From positions 1 through 57,576 of the IMG/VR virus record IMGVR_UViG_3300042564_001295: DNA of 57,576 bases; one strand, 5' to 3'. The stretch comes from a virus (Duplodnaviria; Caudoviricetes). Below, in pieces: positions 30,290 through 42,302 of this stretch. A program made the translations under genes and the position numbers. How positions within the stretch are numbered: position 1 is the first letter of the stretch; each line of letters starts with the position of its first letter. The notes below the pieces were generated by a model that was not told the DNA's origin, ran no database searches, and worked only from the letters and a program-made list of their open reading frames with translations.

Positions 30290-30456
30290 CAGTGTACCGC
30301 TTCCTTAGCATCACATTCGCACTCGACCACCCAGTTGTTAAACTGAGTAAACTTGTTTACTTCTACGCCAAGGCCAACTGCTTCATTTACAAAGTGTTGC
30401 AACAGTGCATTATACAGTGCATCGGGCATTGTGTTTTTATCAAATTTAATTTTCAT
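30289..30456 (-). CDS. Small hypothetical protein (55 aa, not in ORF track)
   Basis: Own translation MKIKFDKNTMPDALYNALLQHF...; 1-nt stop/start overlaps on both sides. Confidence 0.55.
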   Translation of the reverse strand: MKIKFDKNTMPDALYNALLQHFVNEAVGLGVEVNKFTQFNNWVVECECDAKEAVH

Positions 30457-30647
30457 TACCAATTCTCAATTCCAGAAATTTCAATTGTAAATTTACCTTC
30501 ATAGCCGTTTATCTCTGTGAAGACCATTAGTGTAGTTATGGATCCAATTCCAGAATCACTGTCTTGCTTTAATTCAAAACATCCTGCTTCCGGAAACTTT
30601 TCCATAACTTCCAAAATTTTCAATACTTCTTCTTTGCTCAAATGCAT
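30456..30647 (-). CDS. Hypothetical protein
   Basis: 63 aa, coupled to neighbours. Confidence 0.6.
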   Translation of the reverse strand: MHLSKEEVLKILEVMEKFPEAGCFELKQDSDSGIGSITTLMVFTEINGYEGKFTIEISGIENW

Positions 30648-31123
30648 TAGATATCTCCATCTTGTCGCATAAACTCGTCACCTGCTAGTGGCACTGGCTT
30701 TTCATCTGCATCGTATGTCCAACCCAATGCTTTCATCATACGATGCTTGACCAGCAAGTTAGGAGCACGAAATCTTTCTGTGTCATCAAATCCCATTGCC
30801 ACACCAACTTCACAAACTGCACCACTACGGCATATGCCTGCAAAACAGTGTACTACAACATTCATATGATTGTCAAGAGCATGTTGCAACAAACGGACAA
30901 GTTCAGCGGCTTGCTCGTGACTACAACGCATAGCTTCATCAAGTGCAAAGTCCTTTTCTTCAATATCCAAGAACTCAAAGTCATGACGTTCTTTGAATTC
31001 GTGTTTTGCAGTTGGCCTCCAACTTGCTGGATCAGTAATGCTGATCAACATGCTATTCTCTCCAGCCGCATGGTGAAATCCAATAGGAATATCAGCGGCT
31101 GCTACATTTTCAATCCACGGCAT
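30647..31123 (-). CDS. Cys-dependent (CX5R) phosphatase
   Basis: VHCFAGICRS. Confidence 0.85.
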   Translation of the reverse strand: MPWIENVAAADIPIGFHHAAGENSMLISITDPASWRPTAKHEFKERHDFEFLDIEEKDFALDEAMRCSHEQAAELVRLLQHALDNHMNVVVHCFAGICRSGAVCEVGVAMGFDDTERFRAPNLLVKHRMMKALGWTYDADEKPVPLAGDEFMRQDGDI

Positions 31124-31985: not shown

Positions 31986-32705
31986 ATGACATACTTTCAC
32001 CCACACGTTCCTCCAAGTTGGCGTACTCTTCCTATATTCGAACATCATACTAATTCTATATTGTTGTTTCTCGGCGATCTCTGGCCTCGCTCTAAGGATA
32101 CTGCTAAAGATGAAAAGTATCATGATCCTAAAATAAGTTATCAGTTTAATTCTCTCGGTTATAGAGACGCAGAATACAAAGATCGATATGACACTGTGAT
32201 ATTATCATTTGGTATGAGTTCCACCATGGGTCTTGCAATCCAGCTGGAACAAACTTATTCAAAATTAATAGAACAACATACTGGAATCTCAGTATTAAAT
32301 TTTGGAATTCCTGGTGCCTCAGCTGACACTATAGCAAGAATGGTAAGCTGTACTGTTCCTTATTTCAAGGAAAGAGCAAACACTGTAATGGTGTTGGTTG
32401 GTTGGCCTTATGTTTCAAGACGTGAAGTGTTTCTAGACAATTATAAACAGTCAGTAAACACAAACGGCACGCCGCCGTTTCCAGAATTTTGGATGTTATT
32501 AGACAACACTTCTAATTCTCATAACGCAGAACTGAATGCTCATTTTGTAGATCAAATATGTAAAGCAAATGCCGTTAGACTTATTAGTATTCCAATAAGC
32601 ATTTATCCGGATGGGATAGAAAGTGGTGATAAAGGCAGAGACGGAGTAAACCCTGGCCCGGAATGGAATAAGAGAGTTGCCGAGTGGGTGCTTGCTACCT
32701 TATGA
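31986..32705 (+). CDS. SGNH-like protein
   Basis: NSLGYRD, GMSSTMG, NFGIPGAS; paralog of 25197..25904. Confidence 0.6.
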   Translation: MTYFHPHVPPSWRTLPIFEHHTNSILLFLGDLWPRSKDTAKDEKYHDPKISYQFNSLGYRDAEYKDRYDTVILSFGMSSTMGLAIQLEQTYSKLIEQHTGISVLNFGIPGASADTIARMVSCTVPYFKERANTVMVLVGWPYVSRREVFLDNYKQSVNTNGTPPFPEFWMLLDNTSNSHNAELNAHFVDQICKANAVRLISIPISIYPDGIESGDKGRDGVNPGPEWNKRVAEWVLATL

Positions 32706-32724
32706 TAACGATAGCTTCAAAAAA

Positions 32725-32744
32725 ATAGCACCCGAAGGTGCTAT
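32725..32744 (-). terminator. Intrinsic terminator with cUUCGg loop
   Basis: ATAGCAC-CTTCGG-GTGCTAT-TTTTTT downstream of the DUF2828 gene. Confidence 0.85.
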
Positions 32745-32760
32745 CCAAAAACATTGTTTT

Positions 32761-34173
32761 TTACAAAGCGTAACGATCACTCATTACAGTCTTAAGCATG
32801 ATGCCTTCTGGAGTGAACTGATCCAAATCAGCGGCTAGCAAGCTAGTCATTATACTTGGGCTAAATCCACTTACCAATGCGGCACCACTCTTGTCAGCCT
32901 TAACAGGCACGTTGTCTGAACTGTTTAGGTTCCAGAAAACAATCTGTGGCACAGTGTAACCTGCATCTGTGAACTTGCGTTCGATCATTTGCATTGATGT
33001 GTCGTCGTAACGAGCACATTGGTTAAACTGCATGTCTGACAAGATTAGCAACATGGCTGGCATGTCGCCTGCTGGTACTGAACCCTTAACTGCAACGCTC
33101 AAGATCTTGTCCATAGCGGCATGCAAATTAGTGCTCATTTCCCAATCACTCTTGCTCATTTGAGCAACCTTGTCAACAATGTTACCCTTTAGAGTAACAA
33201 GTTGTGGCTTGTCTGAGAAAGTCAAGAAAGTGTCCTTGAACACGCCCTTGTTCTTATCTGCTAGGTACAAGCCCAAGCTAATTGAAACATCCATGCAAGT
33301 CACATTAGTGTTCTTGCCTGCTGGGCAGGACATAGAACCGCTAACGTCTACAATTGGCATGATGCTTGCATCTCCAACGTAGTTTGGCAAAGCATTCCAC
33401 TGTGCCACAATGTGGTCAGTTTCTGTCTTATCCAACTTAGCACGGTAGCTACCGATGACTCCCTTTAACACGTCATGTGGGAAGATTGCGCTGGCGTTAA
33501 CCTTAACAGTCTTATCACCACTTACCAACTTGGCAACATACTCTGCAAATGCAGGAGTGTGACGGCCGAATGCCTTCTTGTAGTTGCGAGCAGCCACAGA
33601 AGGAACGTGACTGAAATTGATGTTATCCCAATCTCCTGCACACATTTGGGTTTCAACAACTGTGGTCATTGTTACCAATGACTTGCGGTACTGCTTCGGA
33701 GTCATTCCGAAGAATGCTCGTACTTCAGCCGCAATCTTACCCTTACGAGGAGTCCACTTTGCAGCCAATCCGTTTTGCGCACGAAGGGCATCGCCCAACA
33801 TGGTATAAGCGGCTGACTTCAGAACTGGGTTTGAGAAGACAAAGATGTCATCCCAACGACCTACTTCTGGAATCTTCTTTAGAAGAGCCAAAGCGGCGTC
33901 TGGGTCACGCTTTTCTAGATGTACTAGAATATCTCGGAACAATTGACGTTCACCAGCACCGCCACGGACATCACGTGCCCATTGTGCAATGCGTAGTGCT
34001 ACGTCAGAGTTTTCTACATAAGCGGCTGTGAAGTCGCCTGTGATGTTCTTACCACGGCTTGCGCCGATCTTGTAGAACAAGTCAACACAAGCCGAAGCTG
34101 TTGACTTACGTGCCTTCATACCATTTTCGGTACGGGCTTCTTGATTTGCTACTGCTGTTACAAATGCGTTCAT
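32761..34173 (-). CDS. DUF2828-family helical + vWA protein (Ro60/TROVE-like architecture)
   Basis: TENG..STASACVDLF, RDVRGGAGER, GRWDD, AAKWTPR; vWA MIDAS DVSGSM, ILSDMQF, FWNL. Confidence 0.85.
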   Translation of the reverse strand: MNAFVTAVANQEARTENGMKARKSTASACVDLFYKIGASRGKNITGDFTAAYVENSDVALRIAQWARDVRGGAGERQLFRDILVHLEKRDPDAALALLKKIPEVGRWDDIFVFSNPVLKSAAYTMLGDALRAQNGLAAKWTPRKGKIAAEVRAFFGMTPKQYRKSLVTMTTVVETQMCAGDWDNINFSHVPSVAARNYKKAFGRHTPAFAEYVAKLVSGDKTVKVNASAIFPHDVLKGVIGSYRAKLDKTETDHIVAQWNALPNYVGDASIMPIVDVSGSMSCPAGKNTNVTCMDVSISLGLYLADKNKGVFKDTFLTFSDKPQLVTLKGNIVDKVAQMSKSDWEMSTNLHAAMDKILSVAVKGSVPAGDMPAMLLILSDMQFNQCARYDDTSMQMIERKFTDAGYTVPQIVFWNLNSSDNVPVKADKSGAALVSGFSPSIMTSLLAADLDQFTPEGIMLKTVMSDRYAL

Positions 34174-34188
34174 TTTCTTTTTACCTTT

Positions 34189-34244
34189 ACAGAATGTATT
34201 TTATTTTCGATTATAGTGAAATTTAAAGTTGCTGTTAACATTCT
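34189..34244 (-). ncRNA. ACAGCAA-box RNA 1 (short)
   Basis: AGAATGT-TA-ACAGCAA...ACATTCT-GT. Confidence 0.65.
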
Positions 34245-34253
34245 AAAACTTTA

Positions 34254-34483
34254 ACAGGATGATCGTGCCAATTTGTTTAGTATTCTGGTCTGACCAATTA
34301 CGGCACTCAGACCCTATCAACATTCATGTTGCCTATTACATGTTTTTCTGTATGTAAATCATATCCGGGCTTTGCCGGCCTATCTATTCCTTGAGCGTCT
34401 ATTTCTAGAAAGCATTTCTGCCTGTTCTTCAACCACTTTCAATAGCAGTTACGTTAGTAGTTTTTAAATTGCTGTAGTCATCC
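34254..34483 (-). ncRNA. ACAGCAA-box RNA 2 (multi-hairpin, probable pseudoknot)
   Basis: GGATGA-CT-ACAGCAA...TCATCC-TGT. Confidence 0.65.
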
Positions 34484-34490
34484 AAATATA

Positions 34491-34647
34491 ACAGGATCGT
34501 TTTCTACTTTTTGTTTTTATCGAGGAGACTTATCGAAACTCCTCTATCTAATCCTACTATTGCTAATAACCTTCAAAGCCAATTAAGGCTCCAGCTATTA
34601 GCATAAGATTAGCAGTCCATGTAATATGAAGTTGCTGTACCGATCCT
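34491..34647 (-). ncRNA. ACAGCAA-box RNA 3 (long internal hairpins)
   Basis: AGGATCG-GT-ACAGCAA...CGATCCT-GT. Confidence 0.65.
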
Positions 34648-34682
34648 AAAACTTTCTTAACAATGTTACTTGCTATACGACT

Positions 34683-34711
34683 ATTATAGTACAAACAACA
34701 TGTGTTGTCTA
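34683..34711 (-). promoter_or_regulatory. Sigma70-type promoter for RNAs 3-2-1 and the DUF2828 gene
   Basis: TAGACA-17nt-TATAAT. Confidence 0.7.
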
Positions 34712-34725
34712 TACATTTTGGTGAA

Positions 34726-34857
34726 ACAGGATACATTTTTAACGACTTTTGCTCTACCACTGAGCTACAACCGACTGCTTTTTAGGCTTGATCGGAAAGT
34801 GAGATTCGAACTCACGACCAAAAGTTTTTCCATGTTAAAAGTTGCTGTTAGTATCCT
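34726..34857 (-). ncRNA. ACAGCAA-box RNA 4: YrlA/Y-RNA-like circularly permuted tRNA mimic
   Basis: AGGATAC-TA-ACAGCAA...T arm, closed acceptor-like stem, D arm...GTATCCT-GT. Confidence 0.75.
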
Positions 34858-34917
34858 AATAAGGGCCACTGGTTAGTGACGATTCCACCATCTAGTTAGA
34901 ATGAACTAGCACATAGC

Positions 34918-34995
34918 TGGAGCAACGGGTGAGATTTGAACTCACGGTCTTCGGGATTTGCAATCCCGTGCATTGGGCCGCTCTGCCACCGTTGC
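34918..34995 (-). tRNA. tRNA-Cys(GCA)
   Basis: Cloverleaf, loop TTGCAAA, U73, CCA. Confidence 0.92.
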
Positions 34996-35003
34996 ATGTT
35001 ATT

Positions 35004-35606
35004 TTAATAATTAAACAACATTTTTCTTGCATCCTCAAAATATGTATGAGGTTTTAATTCTGGAATAATACGTAGTGTTAGTACTACTCGTTCGTTATTT
35101 GAGCCAGTGTTATCCCAATCATGGAATATCTCTGTATTAAATAATATACACTCGCCTTGTTTTGCTATCATACTTTTTAATGGTGTATGATTTTCTTTTA
35201 CGAAACCATCGCATTCTCTGGATGTATTGGTGCGTAGGTTATCTATTGCATACTCTTTTAGATCTTCATCACTATACCAATTAGTAATACACTTATCATC
35301 TAATACTCTACTAACGTAGTTGATACTGAATTTGTTGTTCATTCCGTCTTTATGTGCTCTGTAATATAATCCAGGTTTGCTAATAAACAATGATATTCTA
35401 TTTTTTATCAATTTTATTCTATCTGCCATAGGAATCAAAGACAACATGTGTTGTGCTTGATGCTTTAGTAGAATGTAATTTGTAAATTTATTTAAATTTG
35501 CAATCTCAGGAGTACATTTGTTGCAATAGTCAATTATATCATCGATACCATCGTGGGTAAATCTAATATAATACGGACTACAATCTTCAATAATAGTGTA
35601 TTTCAT
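35004..35606 (-). CDS. 2OG-Fe(II) oxygenase-like protein
   Basis: AHKD...FHDWDN...RVVLTLR. Confidence 0.7.
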   Translation of the reverse strand: MKYTIIEDCSPYYIRFTHDGIDDIIDYCNKCTPEIANLNKFTNYILLKHQAQHMLSLIPMADRIKLIKNRISLFISKPGLYYRAHKDGMNNKFSINYVSRVLDDKCITNWYSDEDLKEYAIDNLRTNTSRECDGFVKENHTPLKSMIAKQGECILFNTEIFHDWDNTGSNNERVVLTLRIIPELKPHTYFEDARKMLFNY

Positions 35607-35615
35607 ACTATAAAA

Positions 35616-35690
35616 TGGTAGGACGTGACGGGATCGAACCGCCGACAGCCACCGTGTAAGGATGGAGTTCTACCTCTGAACTAACGTCCC
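35616..35690 (-). tRNA. tRNA-Val(TAC)
   Basis: Cloverleaf, loop CTTACAC, CCA. Confidence 0.92.
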
Positions 35691-35699
35691 ATATTCTCA

Positions 35700-35930
35700 T
35701 CAAACTCGTTTCAAATATTCTGCACCAACTTTGCCACTTTGGATTTCCAGCAGTGCAGTTAGATTAGAATACACATGTTCACGCTTGTCGCTTTCACGAT
35801 GTTGGCGTTTGATCTCACGTGCTCTTGCTGCCGCAATCAGCACGAGATTAAATCTGTTGCCGCCTGATAGGTCAACACATTGATTGGTGTCAATTTCAGT
35901 GCCGCGACTAAGTCCGATTAGTTTACTCAT
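35700..35930 (-). CDS. rpoZ: RNA polymerase omega subunit-like protein
   Basis: GNRFNLVLIAAARAREI...TALLEIQSGKV. Confidence 0.8.
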   Translation of the reverse strand: MSKLIGLSRGTEIDTNQCVDLSGGNRFNLVLIAAARAREIKRQHRESDKREHVYSNLTALLEIQSGKVGAEYLKRV

Positions 35931-35950
35931 ATATGCCTCATTAAAATGTT

Positions 35951-35979
35951 ATTATACTGTGTTTGGGTTGTGATGTCAA
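35951..35979 (-). promoter_or_regulatory. Consensus sigma70 promoter
   Basis: TTGACA-17nt-TATAAT. Confidence 0.85.
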
Positions 35980-35986
35980 TGCTTTT

Positions 35987-36061
35987 TGGCCTCGCCACCC
36001 GGAATCGAACCAGGATCAAAGGTTTAGGAAACCCTTATTCTATCCATTGAACTACAGCGAG
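35987..36061 (-). tRNA. tRNA-Arg(CCT)
   Basis: Cloverleaf, loop TTCCTAA, CCA. Confidence 0.9.
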
Positions 36062-37138
36062 TTAGCCAATAATTTTTAAAACCTCTGCAAAAGTATCCTT
36101 GTAGGATATGTTTCGTTTTTGATCCAGCATTTCCATATTTTCAACCAGTTTTTGAAACTTGCCCGGAACTTCAGGATGAGATTTTAACAAACGAGTTATG
36201 ATATGGTCGGTTCCAAACTTGTCTTCTATATGCTGTCTTAGCTTTAATGGAGTAGCATCTATGCCCCAAACACCAAAGCATGGACTAACTTGCAATCCAG
36301 AAAACTCATTGCTTCTACTGGGCCATGATCTTTTTGAATGCCAGGTTTCTAATTCTTTAAAATAAAAGATATTCATAGGATTAGCTGTAAACTGTATGTA
36401 AAAGCCCAGCTTGTCTTTTAATATATTATCATAGTGTAGCATGTTATGCTCTACTTTTTTCCAACTCAGCGGCCAACGTATGTAATCAAACTGCTGATTC
36501 ATTCCATCTATGCTGAATGCAAGATCAACCTGTTTAAATGTTGACCATAATTCTATCAATTCAGAATCTGGCAAAATACTACCGTTTGTGTTATAGAATA
36601 CTTCTACATTTGACGGAGTAGTTACACGTTTCAAAAAATCTACATTGTGTTCACTTAGTAATGGTTCTCCACCCACAAAGTCCAAACGGGTGAGTTTATC
36701 AAAGTTGGTAAAAGATATTAATTTTTGATATTGTAGTGAATAATTTTTTAATTTAGCATTGGGGTTATTTTGTTTCTGCCAAAGACTGCTAGAATGCGGC
36801 CCACAGATTGTACATGCCGCATTACATGTTAAATCGATCTGTACCGCAATGTGATACATATCACCGTCCACTGCATCTTCTGGTATAGAAGTTTTGGCAA
36901 CTTGTCTATGACTGACTCCATATTGGTTTTGCTCGCGTCCAAGGCATTCATGGCAGTTTTTTTCAGTATCGGCAAGTACATTTTTTGTAAACTGTCGTCT
37001 AACTGAAGTTAGTTGTATTTTATGTTCTATAGGCGTGCTACTTGGAAGAATCCAACAGCATGGTTGATACACAATGTTGCCATCTTTTTCAAGAAACCGA
37101 AAAGAGTTACTTAGTTTTCTACAAAATTCGTTGGCCAT
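36062..37138 (-). CDS. Radical SAM protein inserted in the tRNA array
   Basis: CNAACTIC, VGGEP, NTNGS; start moved to MANEF to avoid overlap with tRNA. Confidence 0.9.
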   Translation of the reverse strand: MANEFCRKLSNSFRFLEKDGNIVYQPCCWILPSSTPIEHKIQLTSVRRQFTKNVLADTEKNCHECLGREQNQYGVSHRQVAKTSIPEDAVDGDMYHIAVQIDLTCNAACTICGPHSSSLWQKQNNPNAKLKNYSLQYQKLISFTNFDKLTRLDFVGGEPLLSEHNVDFLKRVTTPSNVEVFYNTNGSILPDSELIELWSTFKQVDLAFSIDGMNQQFDYIRWPLSWKKVEHNMLHYDNILKDKLGFYIQFTANPMNIFYFKELETWHSKRSWPSRSNEFSGLQVSPCFGVWGIDATPLKLRQHIEDKFGTDHIITRLLKSHPEVPGKFQKLVENMEMLDQKRNISYKDTFAEVLKIIG

Positions 37139-37153
37139 TTTTGTTTTCCTATT

Positions 37154-37229
37154 TGGTTGCAGAGGATGGATTCGAACCACCGACCTCTAGGTTATGAGCC
37201 TAGCCAGATACCACTTCTAACACTCTGCG
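37154..37229 (-). tRNA. tRNA-fMet(CAT), initiator-like
   Basis: C1:A72 mismatch, loop CTCATAA; only two G-C pairs at bottom of anticodon stem. Confidence 0.85.
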
Positions 37230-37314: not shown

Positions 37315-37391
37315 TGGTCGGAGTACAAGGATTCGAACCTTGGACCCCCTGGTCCCAAACCAGGTGCGCTACCAGACTGCGCTACACTCCG
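37315..37391 (-). tRNA. tRNA-Pro(TGG)
   Basis: Canonical cloverleaf, CCA. Confidence 0.95.
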
Positions 37392-37401
37392 AAAAATTGT
37401 G

Positions 37402-37475
37402 TGGAGCGGGATGGGAGAATCGAACTCCCGACATTAGATTGGAAATCTAAGGTAATGCCATTTTACGAATCCCGC
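37402..37475 (-). tRNA. tRNA-Gly(TCC)
   Basis: Loop TTTCCAA, U73, CCA. Confidence 0.92.
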
Positions 37476-41580: not shown

Positions 41581-41637
41581 ACAGGATGCTTATTTTTCAA
41601 TTAAAAGTTGAATTTTTGAATTTGCTGTTCGCATCCT
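41581..41637 (-). ncRNA. ACAGCAA-box RNA 5 displaying a Lys(UUU) anticodon stem-loop
   Basis: AGGATGC-GA-ACAGCAA..TTCAA-CTTTTAA-TTGAA..GCATCCT-GT. Confidence 0.7.
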
Positions 41638-41641
41638 AAAC

Positions 41642-41981: not shown

Positions 41982-41988
41982 GTAAAAA

Positions 41989-42049
41989 ACAGGATAGCAT
42001 TTTTGGCTTTTTTTCAAGAAAAGGTTTTTAAATTTGCTGTTGCTATCCT
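41989..42049 (-). ncRNA. ACAGCAA-box RNA 6 displaying a Ser(UGA) anticodon stem-loop
   Basis: AGGATAGC-A-ACAGCAA..CTTTT-CTTGAAA-AAAAG..GCTATCCT-GT. Confidence 0.7.
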
Positions 42050-42054
42050 AAAAT

Positions 42055-42128
42055 TGGTCCTCTCGTATGGAATCGGACCATCATCGTTCGATTATCAGTC
42101 GAATGCTCTACCATTGAGCTACAAGAGG
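42055..42128 (-). tRNA. tRNA-Ile(GAT)
   Basis: Loop CTGATAA; T-loop TCCGATT. Confidence 0.85.
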
Positions 42129-42133
42129 AAATT

Positions 42134-42208
42134 TGGCGGCTCCAAGGAGAATCGAACTCCTATTAATGGCGTGACAAGCCACCGTACTAACCATTATACT
42201 ATGAAGCC
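42134..42208 (-). tRNA. tRNA-Asp(GTC)
   Basis: Loop TTGTCAC, G73, CCA. Confidence 0.92.
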
Positions 42209-42214
42209 AAATTT

Positions 42215-42302
42215 TGGTGGATCTTGATGGAATCGAACCACTTGCCGCCACCCCACTTGTTAATGGCTACCGGGTTACAGCCGGCAATGGGGGACAAGAT
42301 CC
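42215..42302 (-). tRNA. D-armless tRNA-Tyr(GTA)-like RNA
   Basis: GGATCTTG/CAAGATCC-A-CCA, GCCGG-CTGTAAC-CCGGT, T-loop TTCGATT, no D arm. Confidence 0.6.

Follow-up and report, generated by a model that had tools for sequence, protein, structure and literature searches.

In a 57,576-nucleotide (nt) fragment of an uncultured lake-water virus (IMG/VR virus record IMGVR_UViG_3300042564_001295; hereafter, the window), we identified a family of six RNA elements, RNAs A to F, on the same strand as a DUF2828/DUF7788 protein gene. Each has a basal stem formed by its outer ends and followed by a CAGCAA motif, and the modules above this stem differ; that of RNA A is a permuted transfer RNA (tRNA)-like head in which the T arm precedes the D arm. 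The same stem and motif recur beside DUF2828 genes of many unrelated phages, and the DUF2828/DUF7788 protein of the window has a predicted Ro60 fold. By analogy with the Ro/Y RNA systems, we consider it likely that RNAs A to F are Y-RNA-like partners of a divergent Ro60/TROVE paralogue and that the family includes both YrlA-like (tRNA-headed) and YrlB-like (short) members. The kinship of the protein to Ro is not new, since homologues already carry the depositors' labels “Ro-like RNA binding protein” or “RNA-binding protein” and PHROG 850 (“RNA-binding protein”) matches it at 9.3e-141. The putative partner RNAs are apparently new; we found no RNAs linked to DUF2828 described in Rfam 15 or the searchable literature, a mention in reviews or in the supplementary figures of Chen 2014 being possible.

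Anatomy of RNA A and the common basal stem

RNA A (34858..34727, minus strand) lies at the downstream end of a tRNA array, 554 nt upstream of the DUF2828/DUF7788 gene. Seven base pairs between its two ends (AGGAUAC, 34857-34851, with GUAUCCU, 34734-34728) form the basal stem, above which the 5' strand reads UAACAGCAA (34850-34842). An AU-rich helix resembling an anticodon stem (ACUUUU, 34825-34820, with AAAAGU, 34750-34745) leads into the head, which consists of a variable region (GGUC), a canonical T arm (GUGAG-UUCGAAU-CUCAC, 34815-34799), an acceptor-like hairpin (CCGAU, 34795-34791, with GUCGG, 34775-34771) with a 15-nt closing loop, U8-A9, and a canonical D arm (GCUC-AGUGGUA-GAGC, 34765-34751); as read from the sequence, G15 and C48 are able to form a Levitt pair. 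The terminal stem, T arm, acceptor-like hairpin, and D arm that a first-pass annotation had described here are all present on the minus strand, and so are the order of T before D and the continuation of the anticodon-like stem into the terminal stem.

That annotation had also equated the element with the bacterial YrlA RNAs, and of this the topology stood and the family membership did not. RNA A has the YrlA order of T stem-loop, acceptor-like stem-loop, and D stem-loop together with tRNA core nucleotides. Chen et al. define YrlA RNAs by a GNCGAAN0-1G motif close to the 5' end that is presumed to bind Ro (PMC4201824). We sought this motif close to RNA A's 5' end and did not find it, the sequence at that place being UAACAGCAA (CAGCAA), and the Rfam YrlA model (RF02553) aligned AUGGAAAA of RNA A to its GNCGAA-motif part. 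The model scored RNA A at 29.1 bits (E 3.1e-4 in 601 nt), the gathering score being 69, and this match is not discriminating, because tandem tRNAs at 37335-37452 of the window, an artefact of YrlA searches of which Chen et al. warn (PMC4201824), score 22.6 bits and because 6 of 14 control genomes also give matches below the cut-off. By that family's own criteria, RNA A is not a YrlA member; it belongs to a sister system of like architecture and gene linkage. The fold energy of RNA A is ordinary (minimum free energy −31.4 kcal/mol, z = −0.80; 42 of 200 shuffles as good), and none of the 34 tRNAs and the transfer-messenger RNA (tmRNA) found in the window by ARAGORN overlaps it. That RNA A is more than a chance arrangement is established by comparative data and not by thermodynamics or the Rfam score.

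The six RNAs of the window occur in tandem or dispersed, all on the minus strand, which is that of the gene. They follow a common plan, with a 6- to 7-bp basal stem, then N-ACAGCAA, and later AAAAU-stem-UGU, whereas their apical modules differ. The conserved core can be written UUAG-stem-N-AACAGCAA ... AAAAU-stem-UGU; just above the stem, the 5' strand reads N-(A/U)(A/G)CAGCAA and the 3' strand is A-rich (AAAAU), and UGU(U) follows the stem. The stems vary in sequence yet pair (GGAUAC/GUAUCC, GGAUGC/GCAUCC, GGAUAG/CUAUCC, GAAUGU/ACAUUC, and GGAUCG/CGAUCC). At homologous positions in relatives, which were located by blastn and not by pairing, GGAUAC is replaced by GGAUGC and GUAUCC by GCAUCC, a change on both sides of the stem.

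RNAs A, E, F, and D occupy nearly the whole spacer between the last tRNA of the array and the DUF2828 gene. For the basal motif, we built a covariance model (R1) from 21 short copies, and RNA A scores 36 bits with it. RNA E (34652..34488, minus strand; R1 25 bits, E 0.0039) has the stem AGGAUCG/CGAUCCU followed by G-UACAGCAA and an apical domain of ~140 nt; its fold (−50.2 kcal/mol, z −4.5), which none of 200 shuffles equaled, is closed by the basal stem. RNA F (34483..34255, minus strand), read by eye, has the stem GGAUGA/UCAUCC with CU-ACAGCAA, then UGUU, and an apical domain of ~200 nt. It was not recovered by R1, and although its minimum free energy structure closes the basal stem, z is only −1.1; its 3' strand, ...AUCCUGUUAAAC, is seen again just upstream of copy D in relatives. 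Copy D (34244..34191, minus strand; R1 60.7 bits), which is an RNA or a leader element, combines the stem AGAAUGU/ACAUUCU with UAACAGCAA and a small hairpin and ends 3 nt ahead of a Shine-Dalgarno-like AAAGG and 17 nt ahead of the DUF2828 start codon. With a strict pattern, 50 of 71 related loci show this copy no more than 60 nt from the ATG. Of the 12 loci missed by the pattern that we inspected, 10 have the copy nonetheless, 8 on the usual stem followed by UGA and 2 on a different stem. The two remaining copies lie within the tRNA array, each beginning 1 to 3 nt after a tRNA CCA. RNA B (41638..41582, minus strand; stem GGAUGC/GCAUCC, G-AACAGCAA, and a small hairpin; R1 58.3 bits) begins 3 nt past the CCA of tRNA-Ile(tat), and its other end lies immediately ahead of the ribosome-binding site (RBS) of a 43-amino-acid open reading frame (ORF); RNA C (42050..41990, minus strand; stem GGAUAG/CUAUCC and C-AACAGCAA; R1 54.2 bits) occupies the gap between tRNA-Ile(gat) and tRNA-Glu, which has no ORF, and ends 11 nt before the next tRNA. 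As in the Y RNA class, therefore, paralogous RNAs with a common end-to-end stem and loop and differing apical modules lie beside a protein gene.

RNAs E, F, and D match no Rfam family, the one hit in 34150-34700 being a chance CRISPR-repeat match (E 0.32); with the bacterial large-subunit rRNA model, the window yielded no match at E ≤ 1, a kind of search that a 58-nt local likeness could escape. A pseudoknot in which AACAG would pair with the CUGUU that follows the stem was rejected on geometric reasoning, as its 1-nt linker cannot span the stacked helices. A general promoter was likewise rejected, the strict motif occurring only one to four times per genome or fragment of 167 to 356 kb and near the gene where the place of the gene is known.

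The relatives of the window indicate which part of the element is conserved. The 338 viral contigs that encode close relatives of the protein were sampled by fetching 80 loci. The full RNA A is kept in 5 of these 80 loci by blastn, while 10 keep both flanks with an 18- to 25-nt hairpin in place of the tRNA-like part, and three others (L010, L034, and L067) bear differently built T-first heads. Because the whole element is so seldom kept and other heads stand in its place, the conserved part is the basal stem with its neighbors. As a correction to the first-pass reading, the tRNA-like head proves to be an optional module on a defining stem and CAGCAA. In five large related genomes or fragments (167 to 356 kb, two of them 94 to 96% complete), the strict motif occurs one to four times each, with 13 of 13 copies on the strand of the gene and within ~13 kb of it in the four whose gene position is known; a backwards control pattern had no occurrences there.

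Heads with the T arm first are not confined to the close relatives of the window. We aligned 13 such RNAs, from the window, seven relatives, the phages Faith1, Alf5, PJN02, and EFGrKN, and an Erwinia phage; a 14th was later found in phage Nate with a second model (R2) built from the T-first RNAs. Across these 14 lineages the T, D, and acceptor-like stems show compensatory changes. In the 13-RNA alignment, the T stem is 96.9% paired, with four of five pairs changed on both sides, and the D stem is 98.1% paired, with two of four pairs so changed; the covariation score was reached by none of 500 shuffles, and slid controls pair at 32 to 46% versus 89% for the structure. Because the RNAs had been found via the basal motif and not via the arms, these arm statistics are independent of how the RNAs were collected. 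The segment between the arms is a 5- to 9-bp hairpin in 12 of the 13, of acceptor-stem length (7 bp) in several, and the 13th has one by eye. In our own assignment of tRNA numbering, the columns U8, G10, G18, T54, T55, C56, A58, and C61 show no variation, and A14, G19, and A21 are conserved to at least 90%. In many of these RNAs, the T arm is also preceded on its 5' side by a small hairpin that resembles the V stem-loop of YrlA.

R2 gives RNA A 122 bits and is not specific, as it also matches tandem tRNAs, the canonical YrlAs of CcrColossus and Bxz1, and short RNAs; it was used solely to find the RNA of Nate. The Rfam YrlA model at E ≤ 1 had no match on the Faith1, BUCT-ZZ01, and Alf5 loci. 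Since the T-first RNAs of Faith1 and Alf5 were missed, that model is too specific for RNAs with the CAGCAA stem.

Linkage to DUF2828 genes and the predicted fold of their product

Homologues of the DUF2828 protein were found by tblastn in 706 of 50,697 deposited phage genomes, with 24 to 48% identity in the rows listed. A pattern scan showed the motif beside the gene in several phages. Mycobacterium phage Faith1 has three copies just downstream of the gene, the middle one with a T-first head, and Synechococcus phage BUCT-ZZ01 has three upstream, the last of them in the leader. Three copies lie upstream of the gene in Listeria phage A511, and the same motif stands beside the gene in Bacillus phage PJN02. 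In Escherichia coli phage Alf5, three copies, one of them T-first, are spread over ~830 nt of tRNA array just downstream of the gene; they occupy 24376-24451, 24542-24609, and approximately 25088-25213, and those of Faith1 occupy 41986-42252. At least three tandem copies stand beside the gene in Faith1, A511, BUCT-ZZ01, and LAh_8.

Overall, R1 matched 13 of 14 DUF2828-bearing phage genomes. All five training phages are among them, with 14 matches, all on the strand of the gene and 12 of the 14 within 1.5 kb, none being found elsewhere in these genomes of 76 to 166 kb. Eight of nine independent DUF2828 phages also matched, and in six of these the best match lies less than 500 nt from the gene on the same strand. 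Matches lie 17 nt upstream of the gene in CP30A, 45 nt upstream in FNU2, and 15 nt downstream in S-CoN_Ph5; EFGrKN has two upstream, LAh_8 has nine, of which five are in tandem and directly upstream of the gene, and Nate has three between its tRNA array and the gene, one of which lies between tRNAs. No match was found in six phages taken as lacking DUF2828 (CcrColossus, Bxz1, G, T4, T5, and phiKZ; 1.5 Mb in total). A PF11443 search of five of these six was also negative, but the 14-genome control of that search gave nothing either, and CcrColossus encodes a TROVE protein, its whole genome not having been searched for DUF2828.

A further set of 20 viral contigs, obtained with a query of 42% identity, had R1 matches in 18, and 32 of 32 matches were on the strand of the gene; because some of these loci are near-duplicates, the independent lineages are fewer than 20. 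A second distant query (P0228) yielded no viral contigs. The new matches keep the pattern UUA(A/G)-stem-N-NCAGCAA ... stem-(U/C)GU with entirely different stem sequences. The hosts of the phages concerned include Mycobacterium, Listeria, Escherichia, Bacillus, Enterococcus, Staphylococcus, Fusobacterium, Aeromonas, Campylobacter, Erwinia, and Synechococcus. Conservation beside DUF2828 genes, on which the first-pass annotation had staked its claim beforehand, was therefore found in many unrelated phages for the basal stem and CAGCAA.

Several other features of these loci deserve mention. ORFs annotated as hypothetical proteins overlap CAGCAA-stem RNAs in Alf5 (L085, 6327-6650, on the opposite strand) and S-CoN_Ph5 (L099, 4019-4108) and are probably misannotations. 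Unannotated gaps of 1.3 to 1.6 kb precede the DUF2828 genes of CP30A (L092, 1727-2994), where we read R2 matches at 1922-2030 and 2073-2213 as unannotated tRNA-like sequences, and PJN02 (L090, 1392-2970), where the gap contains CAGCAA-stem RNAs. Downstream of the DUF2828 gene of BUCT-ZZ01 (L084, 5575-5830) are two adjacent tRNA-like genes, each with an insert of ~40 nt that contains the common sequence ...ACGCAUUCUGUAAAGAAUGAAUUCUGCAAUC..., and Rfam calls one of them a 114-nt tRNA. In an uncultured phage (L129, 2095-2260), a tRNA-like gene that directly follows a short CAGCAA-stem RNA is apparently split by a long insert bearing the motif UAUCAGCAA.

The protein of the window (P0001; 470 amino acids; 34173..32761, minus strand) has Pfam matches to DUF7788 (1e-49) and DUF2828 (1.2e-28). 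An AlphaFold2 model based on 67 diverse homologues (pLDDT 91.9, pTM 0.91) contains a HEAT-repeat ring followed by a vWA domain with a MIDAS (metal ion-dependent adhesion site), which is the Ro60/TROVE fold, and the MIDAS residues D276, S278, S280, T348, and D380 are invariant in the 67 sequences. When the model was compared with the PDB by Foldseek, the best 12 matches were all Ro60/TROVE proteins, aligned over the full length (504 to 567 aligned columns; E 1.6e-7 to 1.7e-4; TM 0.47 to 0.63 in 11 of the 12 and 0.32 for 9nen). They come from Xenopus, human, Deinococcus (Rsr), and Thermus phage phiLo, the last being among the best (9kop, E 1.6e-7; 9l5y_B, E 5.7e-7), and from rank 13 onward only vWA domains were matched, at E ≥ 0.019. 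The first-pass suggestion that DUF2828 is a Ro counterpart is supported by this predicted fold.

Alternative explanations and a proposed role

Several observations weigh against a Y-RNA-like partnership with the protein. At the sequence level, the protein is not joined to Ro; Pfam TROVE gave no match at E ≤ 0.01, phmmer against the PDB gave none at E ≤ 10, and hhalign against the TROVE protein gp139 of CcrColossus aligned only 47 columns at the MIDAS site, with a probability of 66%. Within RNA A, the AU-rich anticodon-like helix has two possible 5' partners, and outside the clade of the window this helix pairs in no more than 67.9% of cells. That the basal stem is 100% paired in the R1 alignment is partly circular, because the collecting pattern required a paired stem. 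Likeness in the mode of docking is an analogy, because CAGCAA differs from the known Ro-binding motif (GNCGAAN0-1G or CGAA). R1 found no match in Vibrio phage K491, which has DUF2828, and in two other DUF2828 phages the matches lie away from the gene. Both matches of Aeh1 are in or at the head of a tRNA array 10 kb from the gene, and all six of Erwinia phage pEa_SNUABM_47 are so placed ~200 kb from it. Owing to this placement, the RNAs are tied both to tRNA arrays and to the gene, and they might act in the processing of tRNA transcripts without touching the protein.

Metatranscriptome contigs place parts of the region in RNA libraries. Contigs from four of four runs cover 33900-34700 with summed depths of tens to hundreds, and the part of RNA F at 34263-34350 has the highest summed depth among them. 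A single contig, of depth 3.9, spans RNA A (34695-34895), and two runs have the short-hairpin allele in place of the tRNA-like head. Depth over RNA A is only 1 to 4, and the data consist of contigs alone, which carry no strand, ends, or level, may include DNA carry-over, and are uninformative for uncovered parts.

The main rival explanation holds that the basal stem and CAGCAA are a processing or punctuation signal of tRNA-array transcripts, acting as a site for a host or phage endoribonuclease or in end protection and without DUF2828 binding; the head would merely be a handle for RNase P or tRNA enzymes, and DUF2828 would co-occur since both travel with tRNA arrays. Copies B and C, which abut tRNAs so closely, fit such a signal, as do the match and the T-first RNA that Nate has between its tRNAs and the frequent position of DUF2828 genes beside tRNA arrays (in the window, Alf5, BUCT-ZZ01, Nate, and EFGrKN). 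We nevertheless consider it unlikely, and it keeps what probability it has because of the arrangement in the Erwinia phage and Aeh1. The six tRNA-rich phages used as controls, all taken as lacking DUF2828, have no R1 match, and in Faith1, S-CoN_Ph5, FNU2, and LAh_8 the RNAs flank the gene at places where the fetched loci show no annotated tRNA next to them. Most relatives, moreover, have a copy in the leader of the gene, and a common stem and loop that bears different heads is the pattern of Y RNAs rather than of a processing signal.

The placement of copies D and B just before an RBS, and of the LAh_8, A511, and BUCT-ZZ01 copies upstream of the gene, would also suit cis-acting leaders (attenuators, riboswitch-like sensors, or translational operators) of the DUF2828 gene and neighboring ORFs in place of free RNAs. 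This we regard as quite improbable, since copies lie downstream of the gene in Faith1, Alf5, S-CoN_Ph5, and many IMG/VR loci, copy C stands between two tRNAs without an ORF, and neither tandem arrays of three to five copies nor tRNA-like heads are expected of a leader. It is more improbable still that RNA A is a permuted or split tRNA gene that is rearranged into a working tRNA, or a pair of unrelated tRNA fragments left behind by recombination, despite its T-arm half before its D-arm half, its core nucleotides of real tRNAs, and its position at the end of a 34-tRNA array. It has no anticodon loop, its anticodon-like helix running into the basal stem; in our reading, its 3' side taken as positions 32 to 38 puts G and not U at position 33; and its acceptor-like stem, read as 7 bp, has two U-U mismatches, with a closing loop that is conserved in the clade. 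The non-tRNA heads borne by the same stem in relatives, the compensatory changes in 13 lineages, which argue against decay, and the absence of an ARAGORN call at RNA A point the same way. The notion that a T-arm-like and a D-arm-like hairpin met by chance in an AT-rich spacer can draw on the z score of the fold and on the similar subthreshold YrlA scores of tandem tRNAs, but it is already contradicted by the comparative data (covariation, recurrence in 14 lineages, and a 32/32 strand bias), and we give it hardly any credence.

The RNA family, its structure, its link to the gene, and the predicted fold of the protein come from the data above. For the Y-RNA-like partnership that we favor, we infer transcript processing, binding, recruitment, and autoregulation from the precedent of Ro and Y RNAs. 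The RNAs would be transcribed together with the tRNA array and the DUF2828 message and be released by the nucleases that trim the flanking tRNAs. The basal stem and CAGCAA loop might then dock on the ring of the protein, while the tRNA-like head could be recognized by tRNA-handling factors such as modification enzymes, RNase P, or the CCA-adding enzyme or by an exoribonuclease such as host polynucleotide phosphorylase (PNPase). Such recognition may tether or gate the ring for structured RNAs, probably tRNAs, during infection, and the leader copy, 3 nt from the RBS, could let the protein repress its own translation.

A broader proposal, which we advance tentatively and would not yet favor over its contrary, is that DUF2828 and the CAGCAA-stem RNAs constitute a widespread, undescribed phage ribonucleoprotein, a second phage-centered branch of Ro/Y systems with modular adaptors and autoregulation through a decoy in the leader. 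If so, the exchangeable heads would direct the ring to specific RNAs or enzymes of the host or the phage; the particle might mature, police, or protect the phage tRNA supply, for example, against host tRNA-cutting nucleases; and the protein would limit its own synthesis via a decoy docking site in its mRNA leader. The carriers of DUF2828 include the Felix O1 group, Listeria phage A511, cluster L mycobacteriophages, and staphylococcal phages, in which the protein is annotated only as “RNA-binding” or “Ro-like”, and the RNA family offers these proteins a concrete and testable candidate ligand. It would bring under the Ro/Y RNA principle a clade of proteins left unconnected to Ro by sequence methods and would make the role of Ro-type rings in bacteria and phages testable in easy phage-host pairs. 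A permuted tRNA mimic, further, appears to be attached to two different docking modules, which suggests independent tRNA mimicry, and, in the tRNA regions of phages, the family accounts for many “empty” spacers as well as for some small ORFs of doubtful standing.

Genomic setting and comparison with known systems

The window is ~16% complete, and close relatives reach 345 to 356 kb; megablast of 32700-36100 against deposited phages found no close DNA match. ARAGORN places all 34 tRNAs and the tmRNA on the minus strand. The final tRNA of the array, tRNA-Cys (34918..34995, minus strand), is directly upstream of the A-E-F-D series, and in three relatives (L013, L041, and L042) RNA A begins 3 to 5 nt past the tRNA 3' end plus CCA. 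A 76-amino-acid ORF among the tRNA genes (35700-35930, minus strand) has an RNA polymerase Rpb6/omega-like domain (Pfam 1.8e-7). The tmRNA gene is a permuted, two-piece one (53761-54259, minus strand; Rfam tmRNA_permuted 135.7 bits), with the ARAGORN tag peptide ANANTFEYVQVPFTVSAMNDREFALAA. Permuted-tmRNA models also gave subthreshold matches in BUCT-ZZ01 (35.5 bits with a cut-off of 47 and 33.7 bits with one of 84), truncated by the 5' end of its locus ~4 kb upstream of the DUF2828 gene. Eight radical SAM proteins, two with SPASM domains, cluster at 11761-24592 with a sulfotransferase-like protein, and a ninth radical SAM-like ORF, under the Pfam cut-off, lies within the tRNA region at 36062-37180. 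Immediately downstream of the DUF2828 gene on the same strand (29166-31123, minus strand), three small enzymes, namely a metallophosphoesterase, an AAA_33 P-loop kinase-like protein, and a dual-specificity phosphatase-like protein, recall RNA end-healing enzymes; in pEa_SNUABM_47, a putative RNA ligase gene precedes the DUF2828 gene by ~420 nt, a single small gene lying in the interval (L089, 1319-2578).

Stable small RNAs of phage tRNA regions have a precedent in species 1 and 2 (rnaC and rnaD) of T4, which are co-transcribed with the tRNA cluster, are released by tRNA-processing enzymes, and have no known function. T4 has no R1 match, and a DUF2828 search of T4, whose control also gave nothing, found none. 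Permuted tRNA genes are known from Cyanidioschyzon merolae, in which the 3' half, T arm included, precedes the 5' half and its D arm. RNA A, unlike these, has no anticodon loop, its acceptor end is closed by a loop, and its outer ends form a conserved docking-type stem that it has in common with RNAs lacking a tRNA-like head.

The closest counterparts among phages are those with Ro60 itself. Table S2 of Chen et al. lists YrlAs for 22 phages, all with TROVE proteins, and its phage Ro60 systems include CcrColossus, cluster C mycobacteriophages, and Bacillus phage G (PMC4201824). For CcrColossus, three tandem Y-like RNAs are listed there (PMC4201824); we read further tandem copies in the spacer, with a different docking sequence (GGUGGCGUAG... 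with ...UGUUCCCC), and gp139 matches Pfam TROVE at 1.2e-17. The Ro60 of Thermus phage phiLo (PDB 9KOP and 9L5Y) binds two upstream Y-like RNAs, Yrl1 and Yrl2, which were found by a CGAA motif, and forms a ternary complex with host PNPase (PMC12135203). Like these systems, the one described here joins a phage ring protein with tandem Y-like RNAs beside its gene. It differs in that their proteins are recognizable as TROVE and their RNAs have a CGAA-type motif, and R1 finds no match in CcrColossus, Bxz1, or G.

The YrlA RNAs of bacteria, in turn, differ from the RNAs of the window in their motif (GNCGAAN0-1G versus N-ACAGCAA) and in their partner, which here would be a protein of the DUF2828/DUF7788 kind that does not match TROVE at the level of sequence; many CAGCAA-stem copies, moreover, are embedded in tRNA arrays, and one stands in the mRNA leader of the gene. 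Chen et al. state that YrlA RNAs and Ro60 are encoded on one strand at most 4 kb apart and that a docking motif can be common to several Y RNAs (PMC4201824). In RNA A, as in YrlA, the terminal stem is built from the 5' and 3' ends with a single-stranded motif on the 5' strand just above it, and the head runs from the variable region through the T arm and a loop-closed acceptor-like stem to the D arm, with tRNA core nucleotides. The RNA lies a few hundred bases from the gene for a protein with a predicted ring and vWA domain, on the same strand, and, as with YrlA and YrlB, a locus holds several paralogous RNAs, some with and some without a tRNA-like head.

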